Under the pieces are notes generated by a model. It had not been told where the DNA came from. It did not search any database and was given only the letters and a program-made list of their open reading frames with translations. The translations under genes and the position numbers were made by a program. Below, piece by piece: positions 7,533 through 39,542 of a stretch of 64,000 nucleotides of DNA (the stretch's first letter is position 1; every line of letters starts with the position of its first letter). Source of the stretch: Mogibacterium diversum (lineage in GTDB: Bacteria > Bacillota > Clostridia > Peptostreptococcales > Anaerovoracaceae); assembly GCF_938028775.1 (NCBI RefSeq), contig NZ_CALIZG010000024.1, positions 129,672 to 193,671 of the forward strand, read 5' to 3'.

Positions 7533-7846
7533 TGTTTCATCATACTTGGAAATATTAGTACCTTTGAAGCCCCACCTTCTGCGTGCTAAAGGCTTTTCTC
7601 TAAAATTTTCATATATATACTATATTTGGCTTCTCCTACAAGCTTCTTTTTATTATATTTGAGATATCATATATTTCTTTTATAGTATCATTATCGACTT
7701 TTATTTTATCCTCTACTTGAATTAATGCAGTACTAAAAAACGACGGATATATCCTCATTCATAAATAATGTTTGAATATATCCCTTACTAATTTTTTGCC
7801 ATCATTCTAAAAAGGAATATTGTACTATCCTTATTAAGCTTAGATC

Positions 7847-7978: not shown

Positions 7979-8028
7979 TCTTCTAATGCTCCCATCCAGA
8001 AATAACAAGTGACTATCCATATTGCCAC

Positions 8029-8451: not shown

Positions 8452-8744
8452 TTGTAGCCTCCTTCGCTAAGCTCTTTTATAATACATTCGTCATTAACCT
8501 GCGTAATATATGAATCAGTTGTTTTTGTCACTTCAATTCTTGTTAAATTTGTTGCAAGAGTTCTATTTTTATAACTATTATTCATATCCTCAGCAAAATC
8601 CATAACGACAGATAGACCTGGTATAGGAATAAAATCTTGAGCAACATCAATTCCTATCCTTGCCATTGATCGTTTTAATATAAAGTTATTCTCATTTATA
8701 TAATTTTTCGATGCCCTTGTATGATATTGTACTACCCCCATCAA
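8439..8744 (-). CDS. Family X paralog (copy 2, cassette B)
   Basis: 101 aa with the shared block TTDSYITQVNDECII and a C-terminal GGYKWID. TTG/ATG start. Confidence 0.5.
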   Translation of the reverse strand: MMGVVQYHTRASKNYINENNFILKRSMARIGIDVAQDFIPIPGLSVVMDFAEDMNNSYKNRTLATNLTRIEVTKTTDSYITQVNDECIIKELSEGGYKWID

Positions 8745-8997: not shown

Positions 8998-9095
8998 TAA
9001 TTGTAATATAGTGTTTAAGTAACACCGTTCATTTAAACTCTTAATGCATAATTACAATTACTTTATCATAATATGCAATCTAATTGTATTAATTA
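8998..9095. promoter_or_regulatory. Candidate operator/promoter region of the island operon: three copies of a TAATTGTA(A/T)T motif, including a 10-bp inverted repeat
   Basis: TAATTGTAAT at 8998-9007 is inverted to ATTACAATTA at 9051-9060, and TAATTGTATTAATTA occurs at 9081-9095. These lie in a 300-bp AT-rich non-coding stretch between the TetR terminator and the first island gene. Confidence 0.3.
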
Positions 9096-9183
9096 TATAT
9101 TTTTAAATAACAGAGCATATAAAATCCTATATAAAATTTAACTATTCGATTTTTGATTCCATTACATCAAACCATATATTACA

Positions 9184-9210
9184 TAAAAATGACGCCTAAA
9201 AAGGCGTCTT
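9184..9210 (-). terminator. Intrinsic terminator of the TetR gene
   Basis: GACGCC-TAAAAA-GGCGTC hairpin followed on the minus strand by ATTTTTAT. Confidence 0.6.
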
Positions 9211-9264
9211 CAAAACATCTATTGTTTACTAACTTTAATAAGTTTACTATTTAAAAACTAGATA

Positions 9265-9861
9265 TTATTTCACCCTAAACTCCCCAAAGAATAGTGGCAT
9301 ATACTTCTTGCTATATTCAGCTAGCGAAAATGCACCATTCTTCATGCACCAGTCAGAAACGAGTGCACGCTCAAGTATTACGTAATTATTAACAAGTTCA
9401 GGAACACTGAATTCTATAGTTATCTCCCCGTTTTCCTGTCCTCGCTTGAGCAATTCACCGAGGAGCTTAAAATAATATCTGTCCTTGTCGAGCAGCTTAC
9501 TAGCAGCAGTATTGGTTAGCTGACTTGCATACATATTGCCTAGAAGCTCATGATCGATATGCTTCTCAATAAACGTATGAGTTTCAAAATTGAGGATCAT
9601 CAGCGTATCAAACACACTAGTGTCCGCTGGGATTCCCTTCATAATTTCTCTATACTTGTTATCGAAAACAGTAGCGAGCGTATCAAGCAAACTCTCTTTC
9701 CCTTTAAAGTAATAGTAAAAAGAGCCTCTCGCCACCTGCGCTTTCTCGATGATGTCGTTCATCGTTGTTGCTTCGTAGCCCTTTTCTTCGAATAGTTCCC
9801 ACGACACTTCTATAATTCGTTCTTTGAGACTTTGTTTCTTTCCCATATTCCTTCCTTTCAT
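9265..9861 (-). CDS. TetR/AcrR family transcriptional regulator
   Basis: 198 aa with an N-terminal TetR helix-turn-helix (TTMNDIIEKAQVARGSFYYYFKGKESLL). Confidence 0.85.
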   Translation of the reverse strand: MKGRNMGKKQSLKERIIEVSWELFEEKGYEATTMNDIIEKAQVARGSFYYYFKGKESLLDTLATVFDNKYREIMKGIPADTSVFDTLMILNFETHTFIEKHIDHELLGNMYASQLTNTAASKLLDKDRYYFKLLGELLKRGQENGEITIEFSVPELVNNYVILERALVSDWCMKNGAFSLAEYSKKYMPLFFGEFRVK

Positions 9862-22268: not shown

Positions 22269-23321
22269 TTAGTCAGCAAATCTATTCTTGTGATCATATC
22301 TATTGAAGTGAACCGGTTCACCCTTTAGATACTCGACTAGTTCATCTGCAACATCTAAACCACCTGTTGCATAAGCCTTTTCCATTCTATTCTTAGCTCT
22401 CTCACCAGGGAAGTTTACCTTATCAAATCCTGGAGCAGGCTTCATTGTATCAAGTTCGTCTAAGCACTGACTCATAGCCTTCTTGAAGGCCTCTGCACCA
22501 ACAAATCTCTCTGGGTCAATTACGATATGCATCTGTCCAAGTCTTCTGCCCTCTGAAAGATCATGATACATGGAGCTAACATGACCACCGAATGGTACAC
22601 CAAGAAGAATTCCAGAGAAGACATCTACGAGCATCATGAGTCCATACCCCTTAGCTCCAGCAATAGGGTTAAGAGCATTAACCTTATGTGGGTCTGTTAC
22701 AGGAGCACCATTCTCATCTACCGCCCAATCTGCAGGAATTTCCTCATGCTTAGATCTCTTATCTAAAATCTTTCCCCAAGCCTGAACTGTAGTAGCCATA
22801 TCGAATACTACCTTTCTATCATCGGCGGTTGGAGCTGCAAATGACATAGGGTTTGTTCCGTAATATGGTTCAGCACCACCGTAAGGAACTGCCATAGGAT
22901 CTGACTGGCAGAACGAAATTGCTAGTAGCCCTTCATCCGCAGCCATCTCGGTGTAGTAACCAATGGATCCTGAGTGTGACAGGTTTGCCATTCCCACAAC
23001 AGCGATTCCATTCTTCTTAGCCATTTCAATAGCTTTTTCCATGCCTACCTTAGCAACAGTAAAACCTATTCCATTATCTCCATCAAGAATTCCAGAGCAT
23101 GGTCCAGTTTCCTTCCAAGTCATGTTTGGCTCAACCGTGATTCCACCTTTAGCAATTCTCTCACTATAATACTCAACTCTTACGGCACCGTGAGAATAGT
23201 AACCTCTTTCATGAGCCCAAGTAAGGATTTCTGCTGCAGTCTCAGCGTCATCAGCATGTAGTCCCGCCTGCATGAGCTTATCTTTCATCAGGCCCTTTAG
23301 TTCTTCTCTAGATAATTTCAC
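22269..23321 (-). CDS. allD: Ureidoglycolate dehydrogenase (Ldh_2 family)
   Basis: The core blocks GYYSHGAVRVEYY, GTNPMSFAAP and DMATTVQAWGKILD match AllD closely. The likely start is a GTG at 23321 preceded by GGAGG; the ORF-track start is at 23351. Confidence 0.8.
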   Translation of the reverse strand: MKLSREELKGLMKDKLMQAGLHADDAETAAEILTWAHERGYYSHGAVRVEYYSERIAKGGITVEPNMTWKETGPCSGILDGDNGIGFTVAKVGMEKAIEMAKKNGIAVVGMANLSHSGSIGYYTEMAADEGLLAISFCQSDPMAVPYGGAEPYYGTNPMSFAAPTADDRKVVFDMATTVQAWGKILDKRSKHEEIPADWAVDENGAPVTDPHKVNALNPIAGAKGYGLMMLVDVFSGILLGVPFGGHVSSMYHDLSEGRRLGQMHIVIDPERFVGAEAFKKAMSQCLDELDTMKPAPGFDKVNFPGERAKNRMEKAYATGGLDVADELVEYLKGEPVHFNRYDHKNRFAD

Positions 23322-23359
23322 TTTTTTTCCTCCATGAACCTGTATATACAAATTCTATC

Positions 23360-23397
23360 TATAAAAACAGGTCCGCATCTATGACGCGAACCTGTTA
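23360..23397 (-). terminator. Candidate internal attenuator/terminator between allE and allD
   Basis: An imperfect hairpin ACAGGTTCGCG…GCGGACCTGT on the minus strand followed by TTTTTAT. Confidence 0.35.
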
Positions 23398-23423
23398 CCA
23401 ACAATTCTTAATATTGCTTAAAC

Positions 23424-24209
23424 TTACAGCTCAACGTCTCTGTTGCAATCCTTTGAGTAGATGTAGATAAAGTCTTCAGTACCTACACCGTAGCAAGCCT
23501 GTGGTACGTATGAATCCATGAATACATAGTCACCCTTCTGTAGAGGAACCCACTCATCATCTAGTACGTACATTCCCTTGCCCTGTAGGAAGTATGCGCC
23601 ATGCTCCTGAATGTGAGTTTCGATATATCCATGGCATGCACCTGGAGCAAATTTCAGCACGTGCATGTTCATATCAAATCCTAGATCCTCTGCAGCTGGA
23701 AGGAAGTCTTTGCTCTGACAGTTCGTCATGCCCTCGTAATCCTTCCAAGGTGTATCGTTAATATTTGCAACAACTGTGTAAGCTTCTTTTCCAGGAAGTG
23801 GATTGTATCTTCTTCTGTAGATATAAACGAAAGCGTCCTTGTCGCTATTGTTTACGAAACTGAATGGCTTATCTGCTGGCGAATAAATGTAACCACCTTC
23901 TGTTAAATCAGCTTCTTTATCAGCATTCTTTACTGTAAGCTCTCCACTAATTACATATAGAAAAGATTCGATTCCGTCTCCACCAATCTTGTCGTTCTTT
24001 CCGCCTGGGTGAACTGTTGAAATATAATCAGCAAATGATGCGCCCATAGCGGGTGAACCTAGAATAGTTGTATCGCAGTTCTCGTAGCCCGGAATAACGT
24101 TCTTAACGATGCCGTCTGGCTCAAGAATAGTGTACTTACCCTTCTTATAAACAGATCTTGTCGAAAGCAGTGTCTCTCTGTAACCGGTATTATTGTTTAA
24201 ATAACTCAT
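23424..24209 (-). CDS. allE: (S)-ureidoglycine aminohydrolase (bicupin)
   Basis: 261 aa, near-colinear with E. coli AllE/YlbA (LGFDMNMH, APGA-HGYIETH-QEHGAY, SKDCNRDVE). Confidence 0.85.
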   Translation of the reverse strand: MSYLNNNTGYRETLLSTRSVYKKGKYTILEPDGIVKNVIPGYENCDTTILGSPAMGASFADYISTVHPGGKNDKIGGDGIESFLYVISGELTVKNADKEADLTEGGYIYSPADKPFSFVNNSDKDAFVYIYRRRYNPLPGKEAYTVVANINDTPWKDYEGMTNCQSKDFLPAAEDLGFDMNMHVLKFAPGACHGYIETHIQEHGAYFLQGKGMYVLDDEWVPLQKGDYVFMDSYVPQACYGVGTEDFIYIYSKDCNRDVEL

Positions 24210-24562
24210 GAAGTTTACCTCTCTTCCTCATGTTTAATAATAATAGACTTTTAACTTGGCGAAACTTATCAACCAATTTTCTATAACAATTTAATCATCT
24301 TTCAACCTTTTTTTCAAGTGTTAGTTTGAAATTTTATGTTCTAAATATCGACCTTATTGCTTTTTTGAATTTTATCTGATAGTGTTATATCATTCTATAC
24401 GATTTCATTGTATTTATCATGTATTTTCAAGCTTTTTAAGATATATTTATTTTGCATATTTTATAATTCAATGATATTTAAATATACAATATCTATTTAT
24501 ATTCATTAATTTATAATTCATTGGTTAGATAATTTTTATTTTTAACATAAAAATTTTTTTGG

Positions 24563-25441
24563 ATGGCAAGCGAAGGAGTTATTAAAATTATGTTAAATGT
24601 TAAGAATATTACGGTTTCAAAAGAAAACAGTATTAACTCGTCAAGAAGATTCACTCTTTATTCCCCTAGCGATTCTACTCTACGCGCTTTAATCGTATAC
24701 ATACACGGCGGCGGACTGCTATGCGGTAATGCGAAGGATTTACCAGAATTACATAAAGAGAGATTGACAGACGAGGGTTACGCAATTTTAGCTATTGATT
24801 ATCCTCTTGCCCCGCAGGTGAAGATTGATGCTATTCTAGAAGACATAATTGATTCTATAAATAATTGTTTTAAGCTAACTGAACTTAGAAGCAATCTCCC
24901 ATTATTTGTCTGGGGGCGATCTGCAGGCGCTTACCTCGCATTGCTCGCATCTGCTAGCGATAAGCTCCACCTTAAATTGAACGGAATAATTTCGTACTAC
25001 GGTTATGGATTTCTATGTGACAGCTGGTATGACACGCCAAGCCCATACTATATGAACCTTCCTATTGTCGAAGAAGCCTCTACAAAGATTCACGATAAAG
25101 AAATCGTATATCGAGGGGATATAGCTAACTATTTCAGCACATATATATACGCAAGGCAGACTGGAAAATGGAAAGACTTGATCTACGAGGGCCGCGATAA
25201 ATATTTCTTTTTGTTATACACGTTAAGAGCCGTAGATAGTCTTCCAGCGCCTTTATTTGCTGCACATAGTGCAGGTGACACAGATGTTCCATATAGCGAA
25301 TTCATCGCCTTATGTAATAAATATCATCCGGATAAATTCATTGCCTCTATACCTGAACATGACTTCGACAGGAATACGAATGAACCTGAGACAGTTGAAC
25401 TTCTTAATAAGACTATTTCATTTGTATCAAATAATATTTAA
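24563..25441 (+). CDS. Alpha/beta-hydrolase fold esterase (HSL-like HGGG family)
   Basis: 292 aa with an oxyanion-hole motif (YIHGGGLLCGN) and a nucleophile elbow (GRSAGAY). The gene and its flanks are markedly AT-rich. Confidence 0.7.
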   Translation: MASEGVIKIMLNVKNITVSKENSINSSRRFTLYSPSDSTLRALIVYIHGGGLLCGNAKDLPELHKERLTDEGYAILAIDYPLAPQVKIDAILEDIIDSINNCFKLTELRSNLPLFVWGRSAGAYLALLASASDKLHLKLNGIISYYGYGFLCDSWYDTPSPYYMNLPIVEEASTKIHDKEIVYRGDIANYFSTYIYARQTGKWKDLIYEGRDKYFFLLYTLRAVDSLPAPLFAAHSAGDTDVPYSEFIALCNKYHPDKFIASIPEHDFDRNTNEPETVELLNKTISFVSNNI

Positions 25442-25478
25442 ATATAATTAGATACTATGAGGGATTCCGTATGAAATT

Positions 25479-25943
25479 TCATCGGAATCTTCTCATAATA
25501 TATTTTAACTTTGGTTTCTCAATTATTTTCTCTATTATAAACCCTTGTTTTTCATATAGGTTCTTAGCAACTTTATTAGAATCAAAAACTGATAAGGTAA
25601 TGCTATTAACGTCTTTATTACCGAAAATGTATTTTAGAAATTCTTTTAATGCCATTGAACCTAAGCCCATACCTGTTTTTTCAGGATTTATTACAAACCT
25701 ACCGATGTGGATACTATCTATACTTGACCTTATTTCTTGTATTATCCCGACAAACTCATCATCATTGAAAATTGAAAAAACATTTTCAAGTTTTCTTATT
25801 TTGTCACAATCAAGCGGATAAGATACCTTGTTCCCCATCCATTGTTCTTGAAAATCCTTTCCCTTATCATTAGACCATTCACATAAAGACAATGCATTAG
25901 TATCATTTATGCCTTTTTCAATTAAGATATTCATACAACTCAA
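25479..25943 (-). CDS. GNAT family N-acetyltransferase
   Basis: 154 aa with an acetyl-CoA binding motif (RFVINPEKTGMGLGSMALKEF). It lies 19 nt downstream of the SIR2 gene on the same strand. Confidence 0.7.
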   Translation of the reverse strand: MSCMNILIEKGINDTNALSLCEWSNDKGKDFQEQWMGNKVSYPLDCDKIRKLENVFSIFNDDEFVGIIQEIRSSIDSIHIGRFVINPEKTGMGLGSMALKEFLKYIFGNKDVNSITLSVFDSNKVAKNLYEKQGFIIEKIIEKPKLKYIMRRFR

Positions 25944-25961
25944 ATTCTCCTAAGCTATTGA

Positions 25962-26957
25962 TTAGAACTGCAGTATTGTTTCAAGCACATCACCGATATC
26001 ACTGCTTATACAAATGCTTCTCTCTTCAAGTTCTGATGGGCAGAAAGCCTCACCGTAATTGACACACGCATAAGTTGAGTTATTATTCGTAATCGCCATC
26101 TGCCAGAATGGGAACTTTATTATCACCGGTGTGTTTGCACCGACACCTAGCTCGAGAAATAGCACATTCATGTTCTCGTGTCTGCGCAGGAAATCCGAAT
26201 ATCTTGCCGAAGCATCTCGCCAGCCACCATCTTCGACGAAAGTCCCATCAGCTCTAAGGTTATTTGTTACTGGTCCTCCTGTGGTTGGCATAACAGGAAT
26301 TAGTTCAGAAGGTATCTGCATCTTGATTGACTTATCACTAGGAACATCGAATTCGCCAGAATCATCGCGTATAAATCCCTGTGCCTCCATAGCTCTATTG
26401 ACCCAGACTTCGTTGTCAAAGGTAATGCCATCCTTACCATCCTCACTTTGGAACAGCCCGAAGTCCCCCTGTGTATAGAATAGTCTCTTTTTATCAAAAC
26501 CTGCCCGCTGGAACTGATGATCAACATTCGTAGTTACTACAAAATAATCTTTTCCATTAACAACCTTAAGTAAATTTTCATAGACAGGCTTAGGAGCCTT
26601 TATATATCTATTATAATAAATTGCCCTTGCCCACCATGCCCAGCGAGTTTCATCGTTAGGAAATGGAAAAAAGCCGCCTGAATATATATCGGTTATTCCA
26701 TACTCCTCTGCAAAATCAAAAAAATATCTTTCAAATCGTTCGCCGCTATACGTAAAACCCGCCGATGTTGAAAGTCCTGCCCCTGCTCCGATGATTACAG
26801 CATCGGCTGCATCCATAGCCACCACCAGCTTTTCCGTTCTTTCTTGAATAGAGCCTTCACCATAAACCATCTGGCCATTGAGGTAGCTCATAACCGCCTG
26901 CCCTCTCTTTATGCTCTCTATATATCCATTAGGTCTATCTCTAAATAAGTCTCTCAT
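25962..26957 (-). CDS. SIR2/sirtuin-fold protein, class-M (SirTM)-like
   Basis: 331 aa with a Rossmann NAD motif (VIIGAGAGLSTSAGFTYSG) and a TTNVDHQFQRAG block matching the sirtuin TQNIDxLHxxAG. There is no Zn-ribbon Cys4. It overlaps the upstream macrodomain gene by 17 nt. Confidence 0.65.
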   Translation of the reverse strand: MRDLFRDRPNGYIESIKRGQAVMSYLNGQMVYGEGSIQERTEKLVVAMDAADAVIIGAGAGLSTSAGFTYSGERFERYFFDFAEEYGITDIYSGGFFPFPNDETRWAWWARAIYYNRYIKAPKPVYENLLKVVNGKDYFVVTTNVDHQFQRAGFDKKRLFYTQGDFGLFQSEDGKDGITFDNEVWVNRAMEAQGFIRDDSGEFDVPSDKSIKMQIPSELIPVMPTTGGPVTNNLRADGTFVEDGGWRDASARYSDFLRRHENMNVLFLELGVGANTPVIIKFPFWQMAITNNNSTYACVNYGEAFCPSELEERSICISSDIGDVLETILQF

Positions 26958-27744
26958 AATACCCTCTATCTTCGTCCTTAAATACGTTAAATATCACTCT
27001 GTCCATAACCCCTGGGTGTTCCGAGAGCCAGCTTCTTACAGTACTAACTGCAATTTCTGCAGCGCGCTCATTAGGAAAATGGAATACCCCTGTCGAGATA
27101 CAGCAAAACGCTACTGTCTTTAAACTGTTTTCCATGCACATATTTAGTGTGTTGATATAGCAATTTGCAAGGTCTTGCTCAAGTTCATGAGTAAGGCTGA
27201 ACTGGACGATAGGTCCAACAACATGAATAACTTTCTTCGCCGGCAAGTTATATCCGTCTGTAAGCATGGGGATTCCCGTTGGCTGCTCATAGTCAGGTCC
27301 AAACTTGGCTCTTAGCCGGTTCATATGCCTATTACATTCCTCTCTAAGCTGTACTCCTGCGTATGTATGAATGCAGTTATCTATACAAGTATGCATAGGG
27401 ATAAAACAGCCTAGCATCTGTGAGTTGGCAGCATTTACTATTGCATCTACAGACAGCCTAGTAATGTCCCCTTGCCAGATTGAGAGACATTCGCTTCTAA
27501 TAGGAATATCATTTACTTCAATAATTCCATGCTCATCTGCCAAACCTTTTAAATATTCATCTTGAACTCTCAAAATTAAACCGTCGATGTGACGAGGGCT
27601 GCGGATGTTCATAAGCGAACGAAGAAGTCGCCTTTTTCCAACAACGTCCCCTGGCGTTTGCAAATCCTTATAATCTATAGAATCTGCTTTAAATTGCTCA
27701 ACTAGAAAATCTAACCTCTCAGCTTGTGTCATCTTTTCATTCAT
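26941..27744 (-). CDS. Macrodomain protein (ADP-ribose binding/hydrolase) with a 95-aa N-terminal extension
   Basis: The macro signature GDITRLSVDAIVNAANSQMLG is present, within a 267-aa protein. Confidence 0.75.
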   Translation of the reverse strand: MNEKMTQAERLDFLVEQFKADSIDYKDLQTPGDVVGKRRLLRSLMNIRSPRHIDGLILRVQDEYLKGLADEHGIIEVNDIPIRSECLSIWQGDITRLSVDAIVNAANSQMLGCFIPMHTCIDNCIHTYAGVQLREECNRHMNRLRAKFGPDYEQPTGIPMLTDGYNLPAKKVIHVVGPIVQFSLTHELEQDLANCYINTLNMCMENSLKTVAFCCISTGVFHFPNERAAEIAVSTVRSWLSEHPGVMDRVIFNVFKDEDRGYYERLI

Positions 27745-27774
27745 ATCTTTTCCCCGCTTTCACAACTTAAAGAT

Positions 27775-27780
27775 ATTATA
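27775..27780 (-). promoter_or_regulatory. Extended -10 box (TGGTATAAT) for the macro–SIR2–GNAT operon
   Basis: The minus strand reads TTGTTTTGGTATAATATC immediately after the upstream terminator, about 30 nt before the macro ATG. Confidence 0.4.
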
Positions 27781-27789
27781 CCAAAACAA

Positions 27790-27824
27790 AAGCCCATTCA
27801 CTAAATATTTGAGTGAATGGGCTT
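27790..27824 (-). terminator. Intrinsic terminator of the NCS1 permease gene
   Basis: A perfect 13-bp stem AAGCCCATTCACT / AGTGAATGGGCTT followed on the minus strand by TTTGTTTTGG. Confidence 0.7.
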
Positions 27825-27887
27825 GATGCATTTTAGTCTATCTTAGGAAAAGTTATTCGCAAATCCCGTAATATGATCGCTACTCGT

Positions 27888-29258
27888 TTATTTCTCGAGT
27901 GTAGTTCCTTTTCTGAAGTTCTCACAAGACTTCATATTCTTCATTAGCAGGTAATAGATAATCCCTGTAGGAATCGTAGCTGTGAAGAACGAAAGGTCAA
28001 CCTTGTAGAGTCCGATTGCCGCACCTACTACAGTTGCAATGATAGCCGCCATGTTTACACCAGCTTTTGACCCATTTGGATCATATAGATCGTCTAGCTG
28101 TTCCTTAGTGAAGTTTCTCTTGTGGAGAATGAAGTAGTCAACAATAAGGATAGCGAAGATTGGAGCGAAGAACGCCGAATAAATCTTAACGAATAGCGAT
28201 AGACCTGCTGCAGAGCTATCATTAGTTAGGATCCATGGGCAAGTTGCTACTGCAAGGATTCCGATTAGGATTACAGCAGTTCTGTGCTTCATCTTAAATG
28301 TATCCATGAATACGTATGCTGGTGGAATTACGTTGCTTGCAAGGTTTGTCGAAAGCTGTGCAAATATGATAAATGCCAGCGTAACAACTAGTACAATCTT
28401 ATTATCTACCATCTCCGCAAATGCGTTGATTGGATTTGCAATTCCAGTAGCTGTCGAGGCCATAGCACCGATAATTCCAAGCATAACTGTCGCTGGAACC
28501 ATAGCCATGAAATACGAGAAGCCTCTTACAGGTGCGCTGTATCCTTGCTTCATCTCACGAGAATAGTCCGATGCATTGAGCATTACTGTAGTTGAGTTTC
28601 CAAAGAAAGCAATTACAGAAGCAACAAATGGAAGTCCCCATGTACCGCTCTTATGCATTAGGTTAGCAGAAATAGCATCCCACTGAGTTGTGAGGCATAT
28701 GTAAAGCAGATAGAACATTGCAATTACAATTACTGTTCCGCCGATATTTCCGACCCACTTTGCACCCTTGAATCCCTTGATTGAGAGCAGAATCTGCACA
28801 ATCTGGAAGAGGATGAAGAATAGCCAGATATTATCATAGTGGAATAATAGTTTCGAAATATTGTTGATAGCAGCTCCACCTAGCCACGTCTGGTAGCCAT
28901 ACCATACGATAGCCGGAAGACCTCTTATCATAGATGGAAGTACATTCCCCTTAGTACCATATGCACTCTTGAGATGAATGGAATATGGTGCTCCAGTCTT
29001 ATAACCGAACTGGTCATTCATAGCTATTCCAACTACTAGGATCGTTGAGCCAAGCAGCACTGCTAGGAACAGCTGTATTAAATTGAGACCTGTCTCCATC
29101 TGAGCGGATCCCATTGCCAGAGTTCCTATTGAGATACAGCCACCGAGCCAAAGCATAGTGTTCGAGCCCCAGCTCATGGTACGTTTCTCCCACGGAATCG
29201 GTTTGATGCTCTCACCCTCATTATTAGGGGTATTTACGTTCTTGTTTTCTGTACTCAT
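27888..29258 (-). CDS. NCS1-family permease (allantoin/hydantoin/pyrimidine type), copy 1
   Basis: 456 aa with 12 TM segments in the nucleobase-cation-symporter-1 topology. Paired with a cyclic amidohydrolase. Confidence 0.7.
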   Translation of the reverse strand: MSTENKNVNTPNNEGESIKPIPWEKRTMSWGSNTMLWLGGCISIGTLAMGSAQMETGLNLIQLFLAVLLGSTILVVGIAMNDQFGYKTGAPYSIHLKSAYGTKGNVLPSMIRGLPAIVWYGYQTWLGGAAINNISKLLFHYDNIWLFFILFQIVQILLSIKGFKGAKWVGNIGGTVIVIAMFYLLYICLTTQWDAISANLMHKSGTWGLPFVASVIAFFGNSTTVMLNASDYSREMKQGYSAPVRGFSYFMAMVPATVMLGIIGAMASTATGIANPINAFAEMVDNKIVLVVTLAFIIFAQLSTNLASNVIPPAYVFMDTFKMKHRTAVILIGILAVATCPWILTNDSSAAGLSLFVKIYSAFFAPIFAILIVDYFILHKRNFTKEQLDDLYDPNGSKAGVNMAAIIATVVGAAIGLYKVDLSFFTATIPTGIIYYLLMKNMKSCENFRKGTTLEK

Positions 29259-29286
29259 ATTGTTCTCCCTTAATTATTTAGCACCT

Positions 29287-30690
29287 TTATCTAACTGGTG
29301 TTACATACTTTCCAAAGCCCTTAGCTTCTTCTACATACATACCATCCTTAGCGACAACGCGGCCACGGATAACTGTGCAGGTTGGTGCACCCTTTCCTTC
29401 CAACCCGTCGAAGCAAGTTACATGTCCCTTTGTGAAGAGCTTTTCCTGCTCAACCTTCCAAGGCTTTTCTGGATCAAGAATTACCGCATCAGCATCAAAC
29501 CCAATTTCAAATGCACCCTTCTGTCCATAGAAACCGAATACCTTTGCCGGATTATAGTCCATAACCTTAGCTATTAGGCTTGGGCACAGCTTCTTCTGAT
29601 GCACTACCATATCGAACATCATAGGAAGGAAGAATTGGATAGCATTGAGTCCGCCCCATGCCTGCCAAATGTCTCTCGACTCATTATCCTTTTCCTCGTC
29701 CGCTGCTGGTGAGTGGTCACTACCAACGCATGATAAAGTTCCATCGAGTACATAATCCCAAAGCTTTTCTACGTCTTCCTTAGTCCTTAGAGGTGGTGTG
29801 CACTTAGCTGGTCCGCCTTTTTCAAACACGAAATCTTCTGAGAAGCCTAGGTAGTGAGGGCACGTCTCAGCTGTTATTGGCAGCCCTTCGTACTGAGCCT
29901 CCTTAACGACCTGTGCAACCATAGGATGACTTACGTGACAGATATGCACTCTACCGCCAGTCGCTCTAGCCATGTCTATTACATTCTTAGTAGCTACATA
30001 TTCTGTCCATACATCGTGAGAATCGAGGAAAGCTCTAATTTTCTCTTGTCTTGAAAGACCAGTCATAGCCTTGGCCTTCTTTTCTCTCTCGAGAACCTGT
30101 CCGTATTCTTCGCAGTGGAATCCACACAGTGCCTTGTATGGCTTTAGAATCTCAAGAGCTTCACGAACATTACCCATATTCACGGTTGGAAAAAGTGGTC
30201 CGTTAGGGCATGTGAATCCCTTAAATGCAGCTACACCAGCCTTCTCAAGATCCTCAAGATCAGCAAGATTGTTGTGAACTGAATATGGATCATCATCGAA
30301 GTCTCCTACAATTCCACCCCATAGACCGAAATCGATGTATGAATGTTTAGTAACCTTACTCATCTTGAGATCAAAGACTTCCTTGTTCATGAGCGATGGG
30401 TCATTGTTAAGAGGCATGTCGATAAGAGTTGTACAGCCTGCAACGGCAGCAGCTCTCGAACCAGTCTCGAAATCTTCTCTATAATCGAATCCAGGCTCGT
30501 TTAGATGAGCATGGCAATCTATGATTCCCGGATATACTAGGTTTCCCTCTGCATCGATAACTTCTGTAGCTTCAGCTTCTGTTCCTGGAGCTAGGAATGC
30601 AGCGTACTTGCCGTCTTTTACAGCAATATCTGCTTCATAGACACGGTCTGGTGTAACCAGTTTACCGTTCTTGATAATTAGATCATACAT
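29287..30690 (-). CDS. Cyclic amidohydrolase (allantoinase/hydantoinase/dihydropyrimidinase family), copy 1
   Basis: 467 aa with a metal-binding motif (IDCHAHLNEPG) in the TIM-barrel amidohydrolase family. Confidence 0.75.
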   Translation of the reverse strand: MYDLIIKNGKLVTPDRVYEADIAVKDGKYAAFLAPGTEAEATEVIDAEGNLVYPGIIDCHAHLNEPGFDYREDFETGSRAAAVAGCTTLIDMPLNNDPSLMNKEVFDLKMSKVTKHSYIDFGLWGGIVGDFDDDPYSVHNNLADLEDLEKAGVAAFKGFTCPNGPLFPTVNMGNVREALEILKPYKALCGFHCEEYGQVLEREKKAKAMTGLSRQEKIRAFLDSHDVWTEYVATKNVIDMARATGGRVHICHVSHPMVAQVVKEAQYEGLPITAETCPHYLGFSEDFVFEKGGPAKCTPPLRTKEDVEKLWDYVLDGTLSCVGSDHSPAADEEKDNESRDIWQAWGGLNAIQFFLPMMFDMVVHQKKLCPSLIAKVMDYNPAKVFGFYGQKGAFEIGFDADAVILDPEKPWKVEQEKLFTKGHVTCFDGLEGKGAPTCTVIRGRVVAKDGMYVEEAKGFGKYVTPVR

Positions 30691-30789
30691 GTCTAATCCT
30701 CCTTATTATGAGCGGAGAGAGATGCTTATCACACCTCTCCGCTTCTTTATAGAATGAATGATTAAATAAAATTCTAACTGAATTTGTTA

Positions 30790-32151
30790 TTAGTCTTCAA
30801 AGATTGTTCCAGTTCTGAAATTCTTAGAAGATGGCATGTGCTTCATCAGTAGATAGTAAACAACACCTGTTGGGATGAGGCTGACATACCACGATAGGTC
30901 TACAACGAATACTGATACGAGGGCTCCAACAGCGATTGAAATTATAGCTGCCCAGTTGATTCCCTTGAAAGGTCCCTGCTTGTCGTAAAGAGTATTGATA
31001 TCAAGTGTGCTCTTACGAAGGAAGTAGTAATCTATAACCATTACAGCAAAGATAGGTCCTAGGAATGCGGAGTATACCTTTGTGAAAAGAGATAGTCCTG
31101 CAGCTGAGTCAGCAGTAACGAGCTTCCAAGGCATAACGCATACTGATAGTATACCAACGAGCACTGTCGCATGTGACCACTTCATTTTGAAGGACTCCAT
31201 CAAAACATATGCTGGTGGAACTATATTGTTGAGCACGTTAGTTGTAACCTGTGCAAATGCGATAAACAGCAGCGTAATAACTGTAAGGAACTTGCTTCCC
31301 ATAGTTGTTGAGAATACGACTACAGGATCTGAATTCCCTGTTGCTGCAGTAACGAGAAGTCCGATGAGTCCCATGAACAGTGTTACTGGCAGGATAGCGA
31401 TTGTATAAATCGAACCAGTCTTAACTGGCCTTATATCCTCCTTTAGGTTTCTCGAATAATCTGATGCATTGATGATCATTGTCGAGTAGATTCCGAGGAA
31501 TGAAGTTGTCGCAGCCCAGAAAGGCATACCCCATGTACCCTTAACATTTGCAAACGATGCGCTGATATCTACAGCGAACTTAGTCTTTACAACGTATAGC
31601 ATGTATGCGAGGATTGCCACGATGAATACGCAAGAGAAGTTCTCAAGCCATTTGATACCGTGGAATCCTTTGATAGCGAGACCAACCTGCAGCAGTGTGA
31701 AGAGACCAAATACAACCGGGAGGTTATCGAATCCCCACAGAATCTTGAAGCAGCTGTTGATAGCACCAGCTCCAACCCATGACTGGAATCCAAACCACAC
31801 GATAGCCGGAAGACCTCTAAGAACTCCTGGAATCTTTACACCAGTTGTACCGAAGCTTGATCTTAGCTGAACAACATATGGCATACCGTACTTATGTCCT
31901 GCATTACCGATAAGCACTAGCGCTATTGCAATTACAAGGCATCCGATTGTCATAGCTAGAATAGCCTGCGCTATTGTAAGTGTGCCTATGAGTGCTGATC
32001 CCATCGAGAATGTACCGATGGATACACAACCACCTAGAAATGATGCTGTGTAAGATAGCGATCCCATGATTCGACTCTTTGTCGGCTGTAGGTCCTCATT
32101 GACTCCGACAACAAGATTCGGATCAAGTGTTTTGTTATCTACAATACTCAT
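30790..32151 (-). CDS. NCS1-family permease, copy 2
   Basis: 453 aa, paralogous to the product of 27888..29258. Confidence 0.7.
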   Translation of the reverse strand: MSIVDNKTLDPNLVVGVNEDLQPTKSRIMGSLSYTASFLGGCVSIGTFSMGSALIGTLTIAQAILAMTIGCLVIAIALVLIGNAGHKYGMPYVVQLRSSFGTTGVKIPGVLRGLPAIVWFGFQSWVGAGAINSCFKILWGFDNLPVVFGLFTLLQVGLAIKGFHGIKWLENFSCVFIVAILAYMLYVVKTKFAVDISASFANVKGTWGMPFWAATTSFLGIYSTMIINASDYSRNLKEDIRPVKTGSIYTIAILPVTLFMGLIGLLVTAATGNSDPVVVFSTTMGSKFLTVITLLFIAFAQVTTNVLNNIVPPAYVLMESFKMKWSHATVLVGILSVCVMPWKLVTADSAAGLSLFTKVYSAFLGPIFAVMVIDYYFLRKSTLDINTLYDKQGPFKGINWAAIISIAVGALVSVFVVDLSWYVSLIPTGVVYYLLMKHMPSSKNFRTGTIFED

Positions 32152-32187
32152 TAAAATATTCTCCTTTAATTTTTCAAATAATTTCGT

Positions 32188-33561
32188 TTAAAATAGTCGC
32201 TTAACCAGTTCGCCTGTACCCTTCTGTCCAACAAGCTTACCGTCTTCTGCCATTAGCTCCCCTCTTACGAAAGTAGCTACAGGTAGACCCTTACCTTTCA
32301 TTCCTGCAAATGCAGAAATCTTATTTACATAGTATAGAGAATCTGCTGTAATCTCCCATTCTCTCTCAGGGTCAATTATTACAATATCAGCGTCAAAGCC
32401 AACTTTAATATCACCCTTCTTTCCATAAATGTGGAATGCTTCAGCAGGCAGCTTAGCCCATGAGTTAGCAAGGACACGTGGGTCAACTCCGCGCTTAACA
32501 ACTCCTTCAGAGTAAATCGCTTGAACGCAACTCTGAATGCCACTTATTCCACCCCATACGTCAAATACATTCTCTATCTTCTGTCCTAGGATTTCATTGA
32601 ACTTCTCATCATATGTACAAGGCGAATGATCTGATGCTAGCCCGGCGAAAACACCTGCTTCTACACACATCCACATGCCTTCAACATCTGCCTTCGTCCT
32701 GAGCGGAGGAGCGCACTTGAAAAGTGGTCCATTCTCTAACACATCGTCTTCTGTAAATGACAGGTAATGTCCACATGTCTCTGCAGAAACCTGATATCCT
32801 TCACACTGCGCCTCATACACCTTCTCAGCAGCTGCTGGATGGCTTACGTGACAGATGTGTGCACGGCATTCAAGCTCCTTAGCAATTTCTACTACAGTTT
32901 CTGTTGCTACGATTTCAGATGCTGGAGTTCTTGAGTCGAGGAAACCTCTCCATGTGAGATTACCAGCTTCCTTTTGTGCCTTTTCCCCTTCTTTAATCAT
33001 CGCAAAATCTTCGCAGTGGAATCCAGCCATGCCGCCAAATTCCTTGATAATTTTCATAGCCTGATACGCCTGCCCATATGTTAGCGGTGAATAGTCAGGT
33101 GATACTGGTCCTAGGAATGATTTAAAAGCGATTACTCCTCGCTCATCGAGGCCCTTTAGCTGATCAAGGTTACCAGGTACAAGTCCTCCCCAGAATGCAA
33201 AATCTGAATACGCATTAGGCTGAACCTTTGCTAGTTTAGCATCAAAAATCTCAGGTGTGGTGAGTGCTGGTTCATTCTGAAGTGGCATATCGATAATAGT
33301 CGTATATCCACCAACTACAGCTGCTGCAGTTCCGTGTTCATAGTCTTCTCTCCACTCGTATCCTGGATCATTAAGATGTGCGTGAGTATCAATAGCTCCA
33401 GGAAAAACCTGCTTGCCAGCTGCATCAATTACTTTAACCGCTTCAGGTTCATCACCCTTTGCTAGGATGGCTGCAATCTTGCCATCTTTGACAGCAATAT
33501 TTGCATCCTGAACTAAATCAGGTGTAACTACCTGTCCGTTCTTAATTAATAAATCATACAT
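32188..33561 (-). CDS. Cyclic amidohydrolase (allantoinase/hydantoinase family), copy 2
   Basis: 457 aa with IDTHAHLNDPG; paralogous to the product of 29287..30690. Confidence 0.75.
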   Translation of the reverse strand: MYDLLIKNGQVVTPDLVQDANIAVKDGKIAAILAKGDEPEAVKVIDAAGKQVFPGAIDTHAHLNDPGYEWREDYEHGTAAAVVGGYTTIIDMPLQNEPALTTPEIFDAKLAKVQPNAYSDFAFWGGLVPGNLDQLKGLDERGVIAFKSFLGPVSPDYSPLTYGQAYQAMKIIKEFGGMAGFHCEDFAMIKEGEKAQKEAGNLTWRGFLDSRTPASEIVATETVVEIAKELECRAHICHVSHPAAAEKVYEAQCEGYQVSAETCGHYLSFTEDDVLENGPLFKCAPPLRTKADVEGMWMCVEAGVFAGLASDHSPCTYDEKFNEILGQKIENVFDVWGGISGIQSCVQAIYSEGVVKRGVDPRVLANSWAKLPAEAFHIYGKKGDIKVGFDADIVIIDPEREWEITADSLYYVNKISAFAGMKGKGLPVATFVRGELMAEDGKLVGQKGTGELVKRLF

Positions 33562-33849: not shown

Positions 33850-34788
33850 ATGGACATATTGCAAACATCTATTTACACAATAAAAACTTTCAATAGACTG
33901 AAATCAGCTAAACTTAGACCGAACATAGACCTGTACGTTCATTCAATATATGAACGCACTATAAATCTAATGCTCGATGGTCAGCTTATAGCACTGCAGA
34001 TTGCCGATTCCCCAGTTTCTCCTATAAGCATCATTTTGCCATTGGACGAAACGGGTTTAGGCAGACTAAAAATAAAATCTAATAGTCCCATATCAATAGA
34101 TGGTACAAATTTATTAATAGGGAAAAATATCATTTCACTAGATCATGCATATGATGTTTATGATGATACACTCTACGAGCATAACTTTTCAACGTCATTA
34201 AAGGATGTGGTGTGGCAGCTTATCGTAGCCTCTGATAGGGACGGCTTTTCAACCCTCATAAAATCACAAAACACTCCAGATGATATTGCGCTTTCATATG
34301 CCAAAAAAAAACTAATTGATGCCGAATCGATATGTAGCATCATGACGTATGGAAATTTAGCCGAGGAACCCACTAAATCGAATCAGCTTAATAAATTGTG
34401 TAATTCACTATCCGGTCTTATAGGCGTTGGCACTGGCCTTACACCTGGCGGTGACGACTTTATGACGGGGGTACTTTCAACATTTAAAGCACTTCCGCAA
34501 TGCTTTAACCATAAACTGATCTCCTCTCTATCTAACTCAATATGCAGTAGACGGAACAATACGAACGAGATAAGTAGCGCTTTTATAGACTGTGCATTAC
34601 GAGGTCAATTTAGTAAAGCAATCATAGATCTATATGATTCAATATGCTTAGATAATGTACAGTTATCGGATATTGGACAAGAAACTTTAGATAATTTGTT
34701 AGACAGTTTTCTAGATATAGGTCATACATCTGGCATAGATACGTTAACCGGAATATATTGGAGCATGACACATCTTTCTAAAATTTAA
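33850..34788 (+). CDS. DUF2877 / YlbF-family protein (AllH-like oxamate carbamoyltransferase subunit)
   Basis: 312 aa with a GVGTGLTPGGDDFMTG motif. It is divergent from the allantoinase genes. Confidence 0.6.
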   Translation: MDILQTSIYTIKTFNRLKSAKLRPNIDLYVHSIYERTINLMLDGQLIALQIADSPVSPISIILPLDETGLGRLKIKSNSPISIDGTNLLIGKNIISLDHAYDVYDDTLYEHNFSTSLKDVVWQLIVASDRDGFSTLIKSQNTPDDIALSYAKKKLIDAESICSIMTYGNLAEEPTKSNQLNKLCNSLSGLIGVGTGLTPGGDDFMTGVLSTFKALPQCFNHKLISSLSNSICSRRNNTNEISSAFIDCALRGQFSKAIIDLYDSICLDNVQLSDIGQETLDNLLDSFLDIGHTSGIDTLTGIYWSMTHLSKI

Positions 34789-37460: not shown

Positions 37461-38519
37461 TTAAATATTTGATAAACTCTTTGAAAGTCTTTCTAATCTA
37501 AAATCATTTTGTTTTTCAACAATATCAATCCATTCTTCAGAAAATATAGTAGCTCCATGCAAAGCACCAATAATAGCACCTACAATTGTTGATATAGCGC
37601 ATGTCTCATCACCGATATTTACAGCATCAAAGATAGCCTGAATCGGGTTATTTTTTCGTGCAATCACCAAACCAATTGCAGTAGGTACTGTTTCTGCAAT
37701 CTCTGGACCACAACCAATAATATCACGCAATTCGTCTACTGCTACATCTGAGTTGTAATTTTTCAAGGCAATCTGCTGTGCAATTTTTATTCTTTTATAA
37801 ATAGATGGACCTGGATAATCATTTACCATATCATCGTCTAAAGCTAACTGATATCCCTTTTGTGCACCATATAAGGATTTCTGTACTACACTGAACACTG
37901 TTGATTGCTCTTGGAATGCTTCTGCTATTGCTGTTGCTACTGCACAAGCCCCAGAAATACTTAGCCTGTCATCATGCGAAGTCATCGTAATTGTTTTTGT
38001 GTTTAATATTACATCATTAATCTGCTCGTTATTAATTATCCCAGTTGCAATTGCCTTGCACGCAGCACCATTAGACGATAGTGCATAGAAATGCCCTTTG
38101 AATAATTTATTCCCTAAATGACCTGATGTAGACCAGAAGTCAGTGCTATCTCTCATATTTAATAGATTTACTACTTTTCTTGTAGTCATGCCTGCAAACT
38201 GTTCAAAATATTCACTTTTGCCCCATTTTATTAATGCATTAACAGCTACATCGTTATCGATTACACCTTCATTCTCTATAATTTCCTCTAATAAATAATA
38301 TGGTATGCTAAAGGCATCTGTAACCTGACCTAAAGCTCTCCCTCGAGCTGCAGTGTCATCATCCGGTTTTATAAAATTATGAACTAAACCACCATATATT
38401 TTCATTATTTCAGAGCGACTTTTTCCATCTGTAGAGGAAGCAAGAGCATCGCCTATTGAAGCACCGCAAAGAGTGGAATATATTTTATATTCTCTATTAC
38501 TAAAAGCTTTCTCATCCAT
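37461..38519 (-). CDS. ADP-ribosylglycohydrolase (ARH/DraG) family protein, copy 2
   Basis: 352 aa with an N-terminal GASIGDALAS motif (PF03747 signature GxxxGDAxG). Confidence 0.7.
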   Translation of the reverse strand: MDEKAFSNREYKIYSTLCGASIGDALASSTDGKSRSEIMKIYGGLVHNFIKPDDDTAARGRALGQVTDAFSIPYYLLEEIIENEGVIDNDVAVNALIKWGKSEYFEQFAGMTTRKVVNLLNMRDSTDFWSTSGHLGNKLFKGHFYALSSNGAACKAIATGIINNEQINDVILNTKTITMTSHDDRLSISGACAVATAIAEAFQEQSTVFSVVQKSLYGAQKGYQLALDDDMVNDYPGPSIYKRIKIAQQIALKNYNSDVAVDELRDIIGCGPEIAETVPTAIGLVIARKNNPIQAIFDAVNIGDETCAISTIVGAIIGALHGATIFSEEWIDIVEKQNDFRLERLSKSLSNI

Positions 38520-38522
38520 TTG

Positions 38523-39542
38523 TTAGTGCTCCTTTCTCAACTGAAGACTATATATATCATTGGCCAAGCCTTTTATGTCGAGTTTGTTAACATTTTCCAT
38601 CGTAGAAATAAAATGATTTGGAAAACTAGAATCACCATTAAGTGCTCCAACTATTCCACCTACAATAGTAGCTATAGTATCGGTATCGTACCCTATGCTC
38701 GCCGCTTCACTAATCGATCTCATCGAATCGCCTGAACAAGCAGCGATTATTCCAAAAGCTGTAGGAACAGTCTCTGATACGTGTAGACCTGTTCCAATGA
38801 TATCAGCTATGTTACAAATACGCTCATCTATACTACCAGTTCCAAATCCAATATCCACCGCCATCTTTATGCGATTTACAACTGATGGTCCAGCAACGTT
38901 ATTACTATGTGCTTTACCTATCTTTTCACCTTCTTTAGCTCCATAGATCCCGGCATCTATAACATCGTATAAATTCGAATCCTCTCTAACCGCCTCGCTA
39001 ACTGCAGCTGCCACTGCACACGCACCTGAAATAGCTAAATTATTATTATGCGTTACAGATGCTACTATAACAGCATCCTTAATTGCATTATCCGTATTAG
39101 CAGCGTTGATTAACCCTATTGGTGATATTCGCATTGCGGCGCCATTTGTAGCTTGTCTTGCTTTATTTTTTATCCCTTCTGAAAGCTGTACTTCTTCACC
39201 TGCAAATCTTTTAATTGCAAGTCTTGTTGTCGGTCCTGCAAAACGGTCAAAAAAAACAGCATGTTTCGACCATTCGACAAGCGCATTTTGAACTATTTCT
39301 TCATTTACTACTCCTGCATTATCAACAATTTCTTTTGCAACAAAATACGCAGAACTAAAATCGTCTGTAAATCCACCAGCTTGATTTCCTGCACCAAAAG
39401 TATCATTAGGTGGCTTAATAAACTCGGTTACTTTACCTCCAAATGTATCAATTATTTGATTTGATGACCTTGCTTCAGTTGCTGCTCCCATTGCATCACC
39501 AGTAGCAGCTCCAATAAGGCATCCTAATATTTTATTGTACAT
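38523..39542 (-). CDS. ADP-ribosylglycohydrolase family protein, copy 1
   Basis: 339 aa with LIGAATGDAMGAATE. It lies 3 nt upstream of its tandem paralog. Confidence 0.7.
   Translation of the reverse strand: MYNKILGCLIGAATGDAMGAATEARSSNQIIDTFGGKVTEFIKPPNDTFGAGNQAGGFTDDFSSAYFVAKEIVDNAGVVNEEIVQNALVEWSKHAVFFDRFAGPTTRLAIKRFAGEEVQLSEGIKNKARQATNGAAMRISPIGLINAANTDNAIKDAVIVASVTHNNNLAISGACAVAAAVSEAVREDSNLYDVIDAGIYGAKEGEKIGKAHSNNVAGPSVVNRIKMAVDIGFGTGSIDERICNIADIIGTGLHVSETVPTAFGIIAACSGDSMRSISEAASIGYDTDTIATIVGGIVGALNGDSSFPNHFISTMENVNKLDIKGLANDIYSLQLRKEH

Follow-up and report, generated by a model that had tools for sequence, protein, structure and literature searches.

A minimal macrodomain/SirTM operon with an appended GNAT gene in Mogibacterium diversum: a likely system of reversible mono-ADP-ribosylation

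Gene layout and signals of the operon

We analyzed a 64-kb stretch of the genome of Mogibacterium diversum (contig NZ_CALIZG010000024.1, hereafter “the window”; Mogibacterium belongs to the Anaerovoracaceae in the Peptostreptococcales) with a focus on three genes that follow each other on its minus strand. The first encodes a macrodomain protein of 267 amino acids (26941-27744; Pfam Macro, 2.9e-32), the second a sirtuin of the SirTM family with 331 amino acids (25962-26957; phmmer, 3e-44 to PDB 5a3a, the SirTM of Streptococcus pyogenes, SpySirTM) and the third an acetyltransferase of the GNAT family (Acetyltransf_1, 3.3e-11), which begins either with TTG (25479-25943, 154 amino acids) or with ATG (25479-25934, 151 amino acids). 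The list of open reading frames agrees with the initial annotation of this DNA on the position and common direction of all three. We consider it likely that the locus is a minimal operon for reversible mono-ADP-ribosylation, made of a zinc-dependent macrodomain (Zn-Macro) and a SirTM, and that the GNAT gene is a lineage-specific passenger.

Upstream of the macrodomain gene lies an NCS1 permease gene whose transcript should end at an intrinsic terminator hairpin (27790-27824, minus strand; stem of 13 bp, loop of 9 nt), followed by a T-tract that runs to approximately 27783. The hairpin folds with −20.8 kcal/mol (z = −5.76), and none of 200 shuffled sequences was equally stable. Directly after the T-tract we read a putative extended −10 promoter, TGgTATAAT (27783-27775, minus strand), which has no good −35 hexamer. 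Neither element was reported by the promoter/terminator scanner: the consensus promoter scan demands a −35 hexamer, and the terminator with its 9-nt loop was missed as well and was found by reading and folding the sequence. The earlier proposal that the pair has its own extended −10 promoter can thus be kept as plausible owing to the position of the motif after the terminator, although the scanner did not list the motif.

The macrodomain and sirtuin genes overlap by 17 nt, the start of the latter lying inside the end of the former. The spacer between the sirtuin and GNAT genes measures 18 nt for the TTG start or 27 nt for the ATG start at 25934, which was chosen by the gene callers on identical metagenomic contigs, and contains an AGGAG ribosome-binding site belonging to the GNAT gene. 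The GNAT gene had been correctly placed just downstream of the pair, while the distance of 19 nt given for it has to be replaced by these values. The promoter/terminator scan shows no terminator between the two genes, and the GNAT gene is probably co-transcribed with the pair from the extended −10, which plausibly drives a macrodomain-SirTM-GNAT transcript. An Rfam scan of 23-30 kb of the window gave no RNA family.

The sirtuin and the macrodomain protein

The sirtuin matches no Pfam model, the SIR2 model included, and its match to the NCBIfam model of NAD-dependent deacetylases is weak (16.8 bits, cut-off 305). Besides 5a3a, phmmer returns 8rsn, a fungal macrodomain-SirTM fusion (6.6e-21). 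Class-M sirtuins are described by five signature motifs, among them T[ST]N[VA]D, QG, GVGx[NT]TP and, for the first half of the zinc finger, the class-specific Cx(3)C, with CxxC as its second half (PMC4518038, supplement). The window protein contains TTNVD at 142-146, in the nicotinamide-ribose loop, where N144 and D146 correspond to the catalytic N118 and to D120 of SpySirTM, as well as QG at Q163-G164 in place of the catalytic HG, with Q163 aligned to Q137 of SpySirTM, and GVGANTP at 271-277, which fits the GVGx[NT]TP motif of the beta6-alpha14 loop. The segment GAGLSTSAGFTY at 59-70 departs from the class-M motif in one residue, Thr64, for which the motif gives Ala; in the close SirTM clade this Thr is nearly invariant. 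R235 aligns with R192 of SpySirTM, the catalytic Arg that contacts the Gln (PMC4518038), and is invariant in two further SirTM alignments.

Related loci were searched for with an eight-sequence SirTM alignment. At least 594 related loci occur in species-representative genomes of Bacillota, Actinomycetota, Fusobacteriota, Spirochaetota, Pseudomonadota and Archaea, and the best 80 of them were examined; the size of the family is further shown by its cluster representatives, which number 3,282 at E<=1e-3 and 310 at E<=1e-30. An alignment of 75 SirTMs, comprising 73 from these 80 closest species loci, the window protein and SpySirTM, has Gln at the catalytic position in every sequence (75/75), and N144, D146, Q163, R235 and N300 are together conserved in 74 of them. 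As the Gln stands in place of the deacylase His, the window SirTM is expected to be a transferase rather than a deacylase. By analogy with its characterised homologues it is predicted to work as an NAD+-dependent protein mono-ADP-ribosyltransferase. SirTMs have been reported to be without deacylase or deacetylase activity, and SpySirTM loses its activity when this Gln is mutated to His (PMC4518038).

The zinc finger is the motif that is missing. The zinc-ligand positions of SpySirTM are occupied by S171, K175, M223 and T226 in the window SirTM, and a motif scan finds neither CxxxC nor CxxC anywhere in this protein, whose only cysteines are C298, C306 and C316. The initial annotation had described a sirtuin without zinc-ribbon cysteines, which is literally true here. 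It had also taken the loss of the ribbon as the definition of class M, and in this it was mistaken: SpySirTM has a zinc-coordinating domain (PMC4518038), the SirTM domain of the fungal fusion Mfs1 keeps a structural zinc (PMC11490716) and Cx(3)C is itself a class-M motif. Judged by its sequence, the window SirTM carries four of the five signature motifs, one of them with the deviation at Thr64, and is outside class M by the strict five-motif definition; because the published Cx(3)C motif is absent, we file the locus as a variant and not as a textbook member. Within the 75-sequence alignment, 68 SirTMs retain none or one of the four zinc-finger cysteines and seven retain all four, the four-cysteine form being the majority among more distant representatives of clusters at 50% identity. 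The residues at these positions identify the window protein as a SirTM homologue of a zinc-finger-less subclade. Our literature searches on zinc-less SirTMs turned up no paper on such a subclade.

Compared to SpySirTM, the window SirTM is extended by approximately 35 amino acids at its N-terminus, and its small domain contains an insertion of approximately 25. In an AlphaFold2 model (pLDDT 85, pTM 0.84) the small domain is confident together with its insertion, which is specific to the clade. A Foldseek comparison of this model with the PDB ranks 5a3a first (E 2.1e-23, TM 0.86) and Mfs1 second, with canonical sirtuins following at approximately 1e-8; no SIR2 of the defence type (ThsA, DSR) appears in the top 50 matches. 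The fold is thus SirTM-like, and neither CobB-like nor ThsA/DSR-like, which settles a comparison that had been proposed for this protein. An ordinary CobB-type sirtuin would have the canonical deacylase His and the zinc-binding cysteines, while the window protein has Gln163 and lacks the zinc cysteines. With this Gln, and with SpySirTM as the best match in sequence and in fold, the reading of the pair as a SirTM-type ADP-ribosyltransferase with its cognate macrodomain is upheld.

The macrodomain protein is matched by Pfam Macro at residues 103-232 and, with 297 bits (cut-off 272), by the NCBIfam model NF003163 “protein-ADP-ribose hydrolase” at residues 5-266. Its closest solved relative is MorMacro (PDB 8rsi; 6.8e-68, 232 bits), followed by SauMacro (5kiv, 8rsl; approximately 1e-56, 196 bits), SpyMacro (8rsm; 1e-44, 156 bits) and Mfs1 (3e-42). 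Zn-Macros have, in place of the catalytic loop, a Zn-loop with the motif Cx(4)HxC (PMC11490716), which is found here as C113-FIPM-H118-T-C120 behind an NAAN motif at residue 104. On the strength of these motifs and matches the protein is a Zn-dependent macrodomain of the MacroD type and a predicted protein-ADP-ribose hydrolase.

Ahead of the macrodomain lie approximately 95 residues which the initial annotation had considered as a candidate substrate of the sirtuin. In the window protein, the alignments to both NF003163 (positions 2-259 of the 265 in the profile) and 8rsi (residues 3-259) begin at residue 5 and therefore span this part as well, and all Zn-Macros carry an N-terminal three-helix bundle (PMC11490716). 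By its alignment the segment of residues 1-95, approximately, should be this bundle. Since the extension is a trait of the whole family, it is no candidate for a built-in substrate.

Gene neighbourhoods in related species

In the systems on which the initial annotation was modelled, the pair is accompanied by the lipoate carrier GcvH-L and the ligase LplA2. That the window contains no GcvH-like or LplA gene is correct: no open reading frame of the 64 kb matches Pfam GCV_H or BPL_LplA_LipB (precomputed matches on identical contigs for approximately 15-57 kb, direct hmmscan for the remaining frames), and the genes flanking the pair are those of the NCS1 permease and the GNAT. A tblastn search with E. 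coli GcvH found nothing in the window or the 80 loci; this is weak evidence, and the absence is based on the Pfam results. The description of GcvH-L and LplA2 as the usual partners, on the other hand, does not hold. Macrodomain/SirTM pairs occur as independent operons, extended operons or fusions (PMC4518038; PMC11490716), and the extended operons with GcvH-L and LplA2 are confined to Lactobacillales and Staphylococcaceae (PMC4518038). Among the 25 most recurrent neighbour families of our 80 loci, none has the size of GcvH or LplA. Because stand-alone operons were described by Rack 2015 (PMC4518038) and Ariza 2024 (PMC11490716), the missing genes are no anomaly and represent the published default outside these two groups. 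MorMacro itself originates from a minimal operon with only the pair, and a tested member of the macrodomain clade of lone pairs cannot demodify GcvH-L (PMC11490716).

For the comparison of neighbourhoods all open reading frames of the 80 loci were clustered and the families were named by Pfam. A Zn-Macro homologue is present in 60 of the 80 loci; among the 44 loci whose flanks both measure 3 kb or more, it lies immediately upstream of the SirTM gene in 28 and immediately downstream in two. Ten loci with such flanks have a SirTM gene, and the DNA fetched for them contains no Zn-Macro homologue (L010, L029, L030, L046, L050, L054, L061, L070, L072, L084), and SirTMs are therefore not always linked to a macrodomain. 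As a separate observation, the locus of another Mogibacterium metagenome-assembled genome (L022) shows only short macrodomain fragments upstream of its SirTM gene, which may be a decayed macrodomain gene.

Regulators and redox enzymes recur around the pair. A regulator of the Rrf2 family is found in 20 and a fusion of a PNPOx-like flavoprotein with two ferredoxin motifs of the [4Fe-4S] type (PNPOx-Fer4) in 15 of the 80 loci. The typical order on one strand is Rrf2, PNPOx-Fer4, macrodomain, SirTM, and it occurs in Lachnospiraceae, Erysipelotrichaceae, Clostridia and others (L008, L011, L019, L033, L037, L038 and further loci). HxlR regulators are present in eight loci and an FMN reductase in seven; NmrA-like NAD(P)H-binding proteins, SnoaL-like proteins, oxidoreductases of the Zn-ADH type and glutathione peroxidase are recurrent as well. 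At least one redox or regulator neighbour of this kind stands within four genes of the pair in 25 of the 44 fully flanked loci. Our literature searches turned up no paper linking SirTM with Rrf2, and as a candidate regulator or target of lone pairs we prefer the Rrf2 regulator and the PNPOx-ferredoxin flavoprotein to the GNAT.

The window has no such partners: a search of its whole length for homologues of the Rrf2, PNPOx-Fer4, FMN reductase and HxlR partners gave none, the only match being that of a ferredoxin motif to a glycyl-radical activase, and the Rrf2 protein encoded at 53364-53807 is of the IscR type and stands beside iscS/nifU. A contig of a sister lineage (L090) has the order permease, Rrf2 (446-889 of that contig), macrodomain, SirTM, GNAT, esterase, whereas the 143 nt between permease and macrodomain gene in the window (27745-27887) contain the terminator and the promoter and no Rrf2 gene. 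As Rrf2 linkage is widespread among the relatives, we infer that the gene was lost in this species, in consequence of which the expression of the operon may be deregulated here.

Genes directly 3' of SirTM in other species are varied and include peroxiredoxin, glutathione peroxidase, MarR, Rrf2, D-2-hydroxyacid dehydrogenase and Tpt1-like genes. Two of them were noted by eye. In a Solobacterium metagenome-assembled genome (L063, approximately 9020-9560) an open reading frame of 178 amino acids that resembles RNA 2'-phosphotransferases of the Tpt1/KptA type begins 23 nt after the SirTM gene; Tpt1/KptA is an NAD+-dependent enzyme of ADP-ribosyl transfer. In L069 (approximately 9000-9470) an open reading frame similar to Bcp-type peroxiredoxins overlaps the stop of the SirTM gene.

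Within its own chromosome the operon interrupts an otherwise coherent cluster for allantoin and purine degradation (22269-33561 and 33850-34788), which contains two pairs of amidohydrolase and NCS1 permease, AllH, a cupin, an Ldh_2 dehydrogenase, carbamate kinase and an AllF/AllG fusion of 1001 amino acids. The sister lineage has the insertion at the corresponding position. A functional tie of the pair to this cluster was considered and rejected, as allantoin genes are not recurrent in the loci of other species. Convergent to the operon and outside of it lies a gene of the plus strand (24563-25441) for an alpha/beta-hydrolase of 292 amino acids of the acetyl-esterase or hormone-sensitive-lipase type (BD-FAE 3.3e-13, Abhydrolase_3 6.3e-13, Pfam); this esterase gene is kept beside the GNAT gene in the sister lineage. 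An identical SirTM protein occurs on human-associated metagenome contigs, and the closest species-representative genome is that of a Mogibacterium sp. assembled from a metagenome, with 97% identity.

Two other features of the window may be mentioned. Approximately 10 kb from the operon there are two tandem genes of the ADP-ribosylglycohydrolase family (PF03747; 352 and 339 amino acids; 37461-39542, minus strand). They share an apparent operon for nucleoside or pseudouridine catabolism with a PfkB kinase, an ABC transporter of the sugar type and an indigoidine-synthase-A-like gene of the pseudouridine-5'-phosphate glycosidase type, and they are probably metabolic hydrolases and not protein de-ADP-ribosylases. 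In addition, an island of low GC content (5442-8744, minus strand; 27-33% compared to approximately 42%) contains seven small open reading frames of 87-143 amino acids without a convincing Pfam match. Several of them have similar N-terminal hydrophobic segments, and they may be paralogous small membrane-anchored proteins of foreign origin.

The GNAT gene differs from the pair in composition and in distribution. Its GC content is 0.295, compared to 0.412 for the macrodomain and 0.429 for the SirTM gene. All its NCBIfam matches stay below their cut-offs (rimI with 51 bits versus 86; PseH, AAC(6') and RimI/RimL-type models), in the PDB it is most similar to proteins annotated as aminoglycoside N6'-acetyltransferases (5.7e-10), and among characterised enzymes it comes closest to acetyltransferases of the aminoglycoside 6'-N-, PseH and polyamine types (1e-10 to 1e-5) and not to those of the Pat type. 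By tblastn a GNAT homologue lies near SirTM in one of the 80 species loci, L007, which is of the same species; a profile hidden Markov model of more than 100 homologues found nothing else convincing in the other 79, even at E<1. Its homologues with 61-66% identity are solitary genes, located in Streptococcus, in Peptoanaerobacter and next to genes of the type found in integrative and conjugative elements (ArdC, YodL, DUF4316).

Outside the species the trio is present on the sister-lineage contig, at the same chromosomal position. Here the amino acid identity to the window is 83% for the macrodomain protein, 75% for SirTM, 85% for the GNAT and 75% for the esterase. Synonymous divergence (pS) is 0.32 for the GNAT and 0.71-0.79 (saturated) for the other three, and all compared genes are under purifying selection, with a dN/dS of 0.19 for the GNAT. 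The low pS could reflect either a more recent shared ancestry or a constraint by the extreme AT codon usage. Taken together, these sequence comparisons lead us to infer that the GNAT was acquired horizontally as a lineage-specific add-on and is not a core partner; most likely it is functionally independent of the pair, as a small-molecule or N-terminal acetyltransferase.

In Streptococcus pantholopis (CP014699.1; L087:4001-4456) a GNAT homologue of 61% identity stands alone directly upstream of rplJ-rplL (L10, L7/L12), and the window GNAT itself has a weak match to a model of L7/L12-serine acetyltransferases (19 bits, cut-off 184). Both together are a possible lead to the GNAT substrate. A toxin of the TacT/AtaT type was also considered for the GNAT and rejected, since no neighbour resembles an antitoxin and the PADLOC match is only marginal.

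The cross-talk between acetylation and ADP-ribosylation that had been suggested on the basis of the shared operon is therefore not borne out by the absence of the GNAT from 79 loci, its deviant GC content and its stand-alone homologues. It corresponds to an explanation in which the GNAT is a functional partner that acetylates the target of SirTM, acetylates ADP-ribose or serves itself as the substrate of SirTM and the macrodomain protein. We hold it to be rather unlikely. Its arguments are the location on the same strand behind a gap of 18-27 nt with a ribosome-binding site and no detected terminator, the conservation of the trio and the convergent esterase in the sister lineage, and the purifying selection on the GNAT. 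They are opposed by the distribution of the gene, by homologues in unrelated contexts, one of them resembling an integrative and conjugative element, by the strongly deviant GC content and separate divergence history, and by a kinship with small-molecule N-acetyltransferases and not with protein lysine acetyltransferases of the Pat type. An acetyl cycle with the sirtuin is not to be expected either, as SirTMs are without deacetylase activity (PMC4518038). A recruitment of the GNAT to a function within this lineage is unlikely in our estimate, and it is distinctly unlikely that the acquired enzyme is a true third component, with a single non-lipoyl target, or else the GNAT itself, receiving both acetylation and ADP-ribosylation. 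If this were the case, the three enzymes, the zinc-less SirTM and the loss of Rrf2 would describe a constitutively expressed cassette of modifying enzymes, from which one might learn what class of substrate the lone SirTM/Zn-Macro pairs act on.

Proposed function and comparison with known systems

The preferred reading of the locus as a minimal Zn-Macro/SirTM operon suggests the following course of events. Transcription would start from the extended −10 directly after the permease terminator, and the translation of macrodomain protein and SirTM would be coupled by their 17-nt overlap. The SirTM would use NAD+ to mono-ADP-ribosylate a protein target other than an operon-encoded GcvH-L, and the Zn macrodomain would strip the ADP-ribose mark again, probably from Asp or Glu. 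By analogy with the clade neighbours (Rrf2, PNPOx-ferredoxin, FMN reductase, HxlR, peroxidases) the pair belongs most likely to a redox or electrophile stress response. The low-GC GNAT may have arrived behind the SirTM gene by horizontal transfer in the Mogibacterium lineage. The local peculiarities of the locus are its zinc-finger-less SirTM, the loss of Rrf2 and the appended, foreign-looking GNAT.

Several points weigh against this reading. The activities assigned to SirTMs of lone pairs, including that of the window, are carried over from characterised homologues, and a SirTM whose sequence lacks the zinc finger could be inactive or differently active. The redox role is derived from neighbours in other species, while the window has none of them and its pair is situated in an allantoin cluster. 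The tight spacing of the GNAT gene (18-27 nt, no terminator), its retention with the pair in two lineages and its dN/dS of 0.19 would fit a functional link within the lineage. Finally, our view is that of a 64-kb window and of the best 80 among at least 594 related loci.

The pair could also be a module similar to toxin and antitoxin, in analogy to DarT/DarG, with the SirTM as a growth-arresting transferase or NAD+ consumer and the macrodomain protein as its antitoxin. The macrodomain gene does lie upstream of the transferase gene and overlaps it by 17 nt, and the pair is scattered over phyla and Archaea, which indicates frequent horizontal transfer. A toxic SirTM is however hard to reconcile with ten fully flanked loci that have no Zn-Macro. 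Operons with Rrf2 and redox enzymes, and not islands of mobile or defence genes, are a common setting of the pair; those SirTMs that have been characterised are regulators of high target specificity (PMC4518038), and PADLOC returns no match. This makes the idea highly doubtful. DarT/DarG is similar to the window in that the gene of an ADP-ribosyltransferase is paired with that of a reversing macrodomain; it differs in that DarT is a PARP-like DNA ADP-ribosyltransferase, whereas the enzyme of the window is a sirtuin of a family that dispenses with the macrodomain in at least ten fully flanked loci.

A defence role, which had been left open for the operon, finds no support and is very unlikely. 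In this case the SIR2 domain would deplete NAD+ upon infection in the style of Thoeris ThsA, DSR1/2, SIR2-HerA or SIR2-pAgo. The defence-type NADases do share the SIR2 Rossmann fold and the substrate NAD+ with the window SirTM, which, like many SIR2 domains of defence systems, is also missed by the Pfam SIR2 model. It differs from them by the SirTM-specific QG and Arg motifs with the conserved transferase residues Q163, R235 and N144, by top 50 folds that consist of SirTM structures followed by canonical sirtuins and include no ThsA or DSR type, and by the lack of sensor or partner domains. PADLOC has no match for the macrodomain protein or SirTM at E<=0.01 and a marginal one for the GNAT (1.2e-4), the neighbours are housekeeping metabolic genes, and among 2.9 million viral contigs only four related loci are found, three of them within approximately 1 kb of a contig end.

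A CobB-type deacylase forming an acetylation/deacetylation switch with the GNAT, for which the superficial resemblance of a sirtuin beside a GNAT to the Pat/CobB logic and the weak NCBIfam deacetylase match could be cited, is extremely unlikely in view of the catalytic His replaced by Gln163, the absent zinc-binding cysteines, the missing Pfam SIR2 match and nearest relatives that are SirTMs, shown to be without deacylase activity and inactive after a Q-to-H exchange in SpySirTM (PMC4518038).

We therefore return to the operon of Zn-Macro and SirTM as the preferred explanation. The targets of such systems outside the extended type are unknown according to PMC11490716, an acknowledged open question which the window does not answer. 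Three leads may be taken from it. A large SirTM subclade of gut, rumen and oral origin keeps the catalytic residues while it has lost the zinc finger and gained an insertion in the small domain; Rrf2 and the PNPOx-ferredoxin flavoprotein recur beside this zinc-less subclade; and the sister lineages provide a natural pair with (L090) and without (window) the Rrf2 gene. These leads are modest, and none is surprising enough to change current thinking on bacterial ADP-ribosylation.

The closest known systems are the lone Zn-Macro/SirTM operons of Methanobrevibacter oralis (MorMacro, 8RSI-K), Enterococcus faecalis and Treponema pedis. They likewise consist of a macrodomain gene followed by a SirTM gene without GcvH-L or LplA2, and their macrodomain proteins have the three-helix bundle and the Cx4HxC Zn-loop as in the window. 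Unlike them, the window adds a GNAT gene 18-27 nt downstream, and the Rrf2 regulator that adjoins many lone pairs is gone from its operon. The missing zinc finger of the window SirTM may be a further difference.

S. aureus and S. pyogenes have an extended operon that combines GcvH-L, a Zn-Macro, a SirTM and LplA2 with OYE and LLM oxidoreductases, and in staphylococci it is induced by oxidative stress (PMC4518038; PMC11490716). It shares the writer and eraser families with the window as well as the catalytic SirTM residues (N, D, Q, R, GVGxNTP), and its OYE/LLM link is echoed by the oxidoreductase neighbours of the wider clade. The window differs from it by the absence of GcvH-L and LplA2 from 64 kb, by a macrodomain protein of the lone-pair clade and by a SirTM that has lost the zinc finger, gained the small-domain insertion and acquired an N-terminal extension. 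In Mfs1 of Fusarium oxysporum (PDB 8RSN), finally, both domains are homologous to the window proteins; they form a single polypeptide with a structural zinc, whereas the window encodes them in two genes that overlap, and its SirTM has no zinc site.

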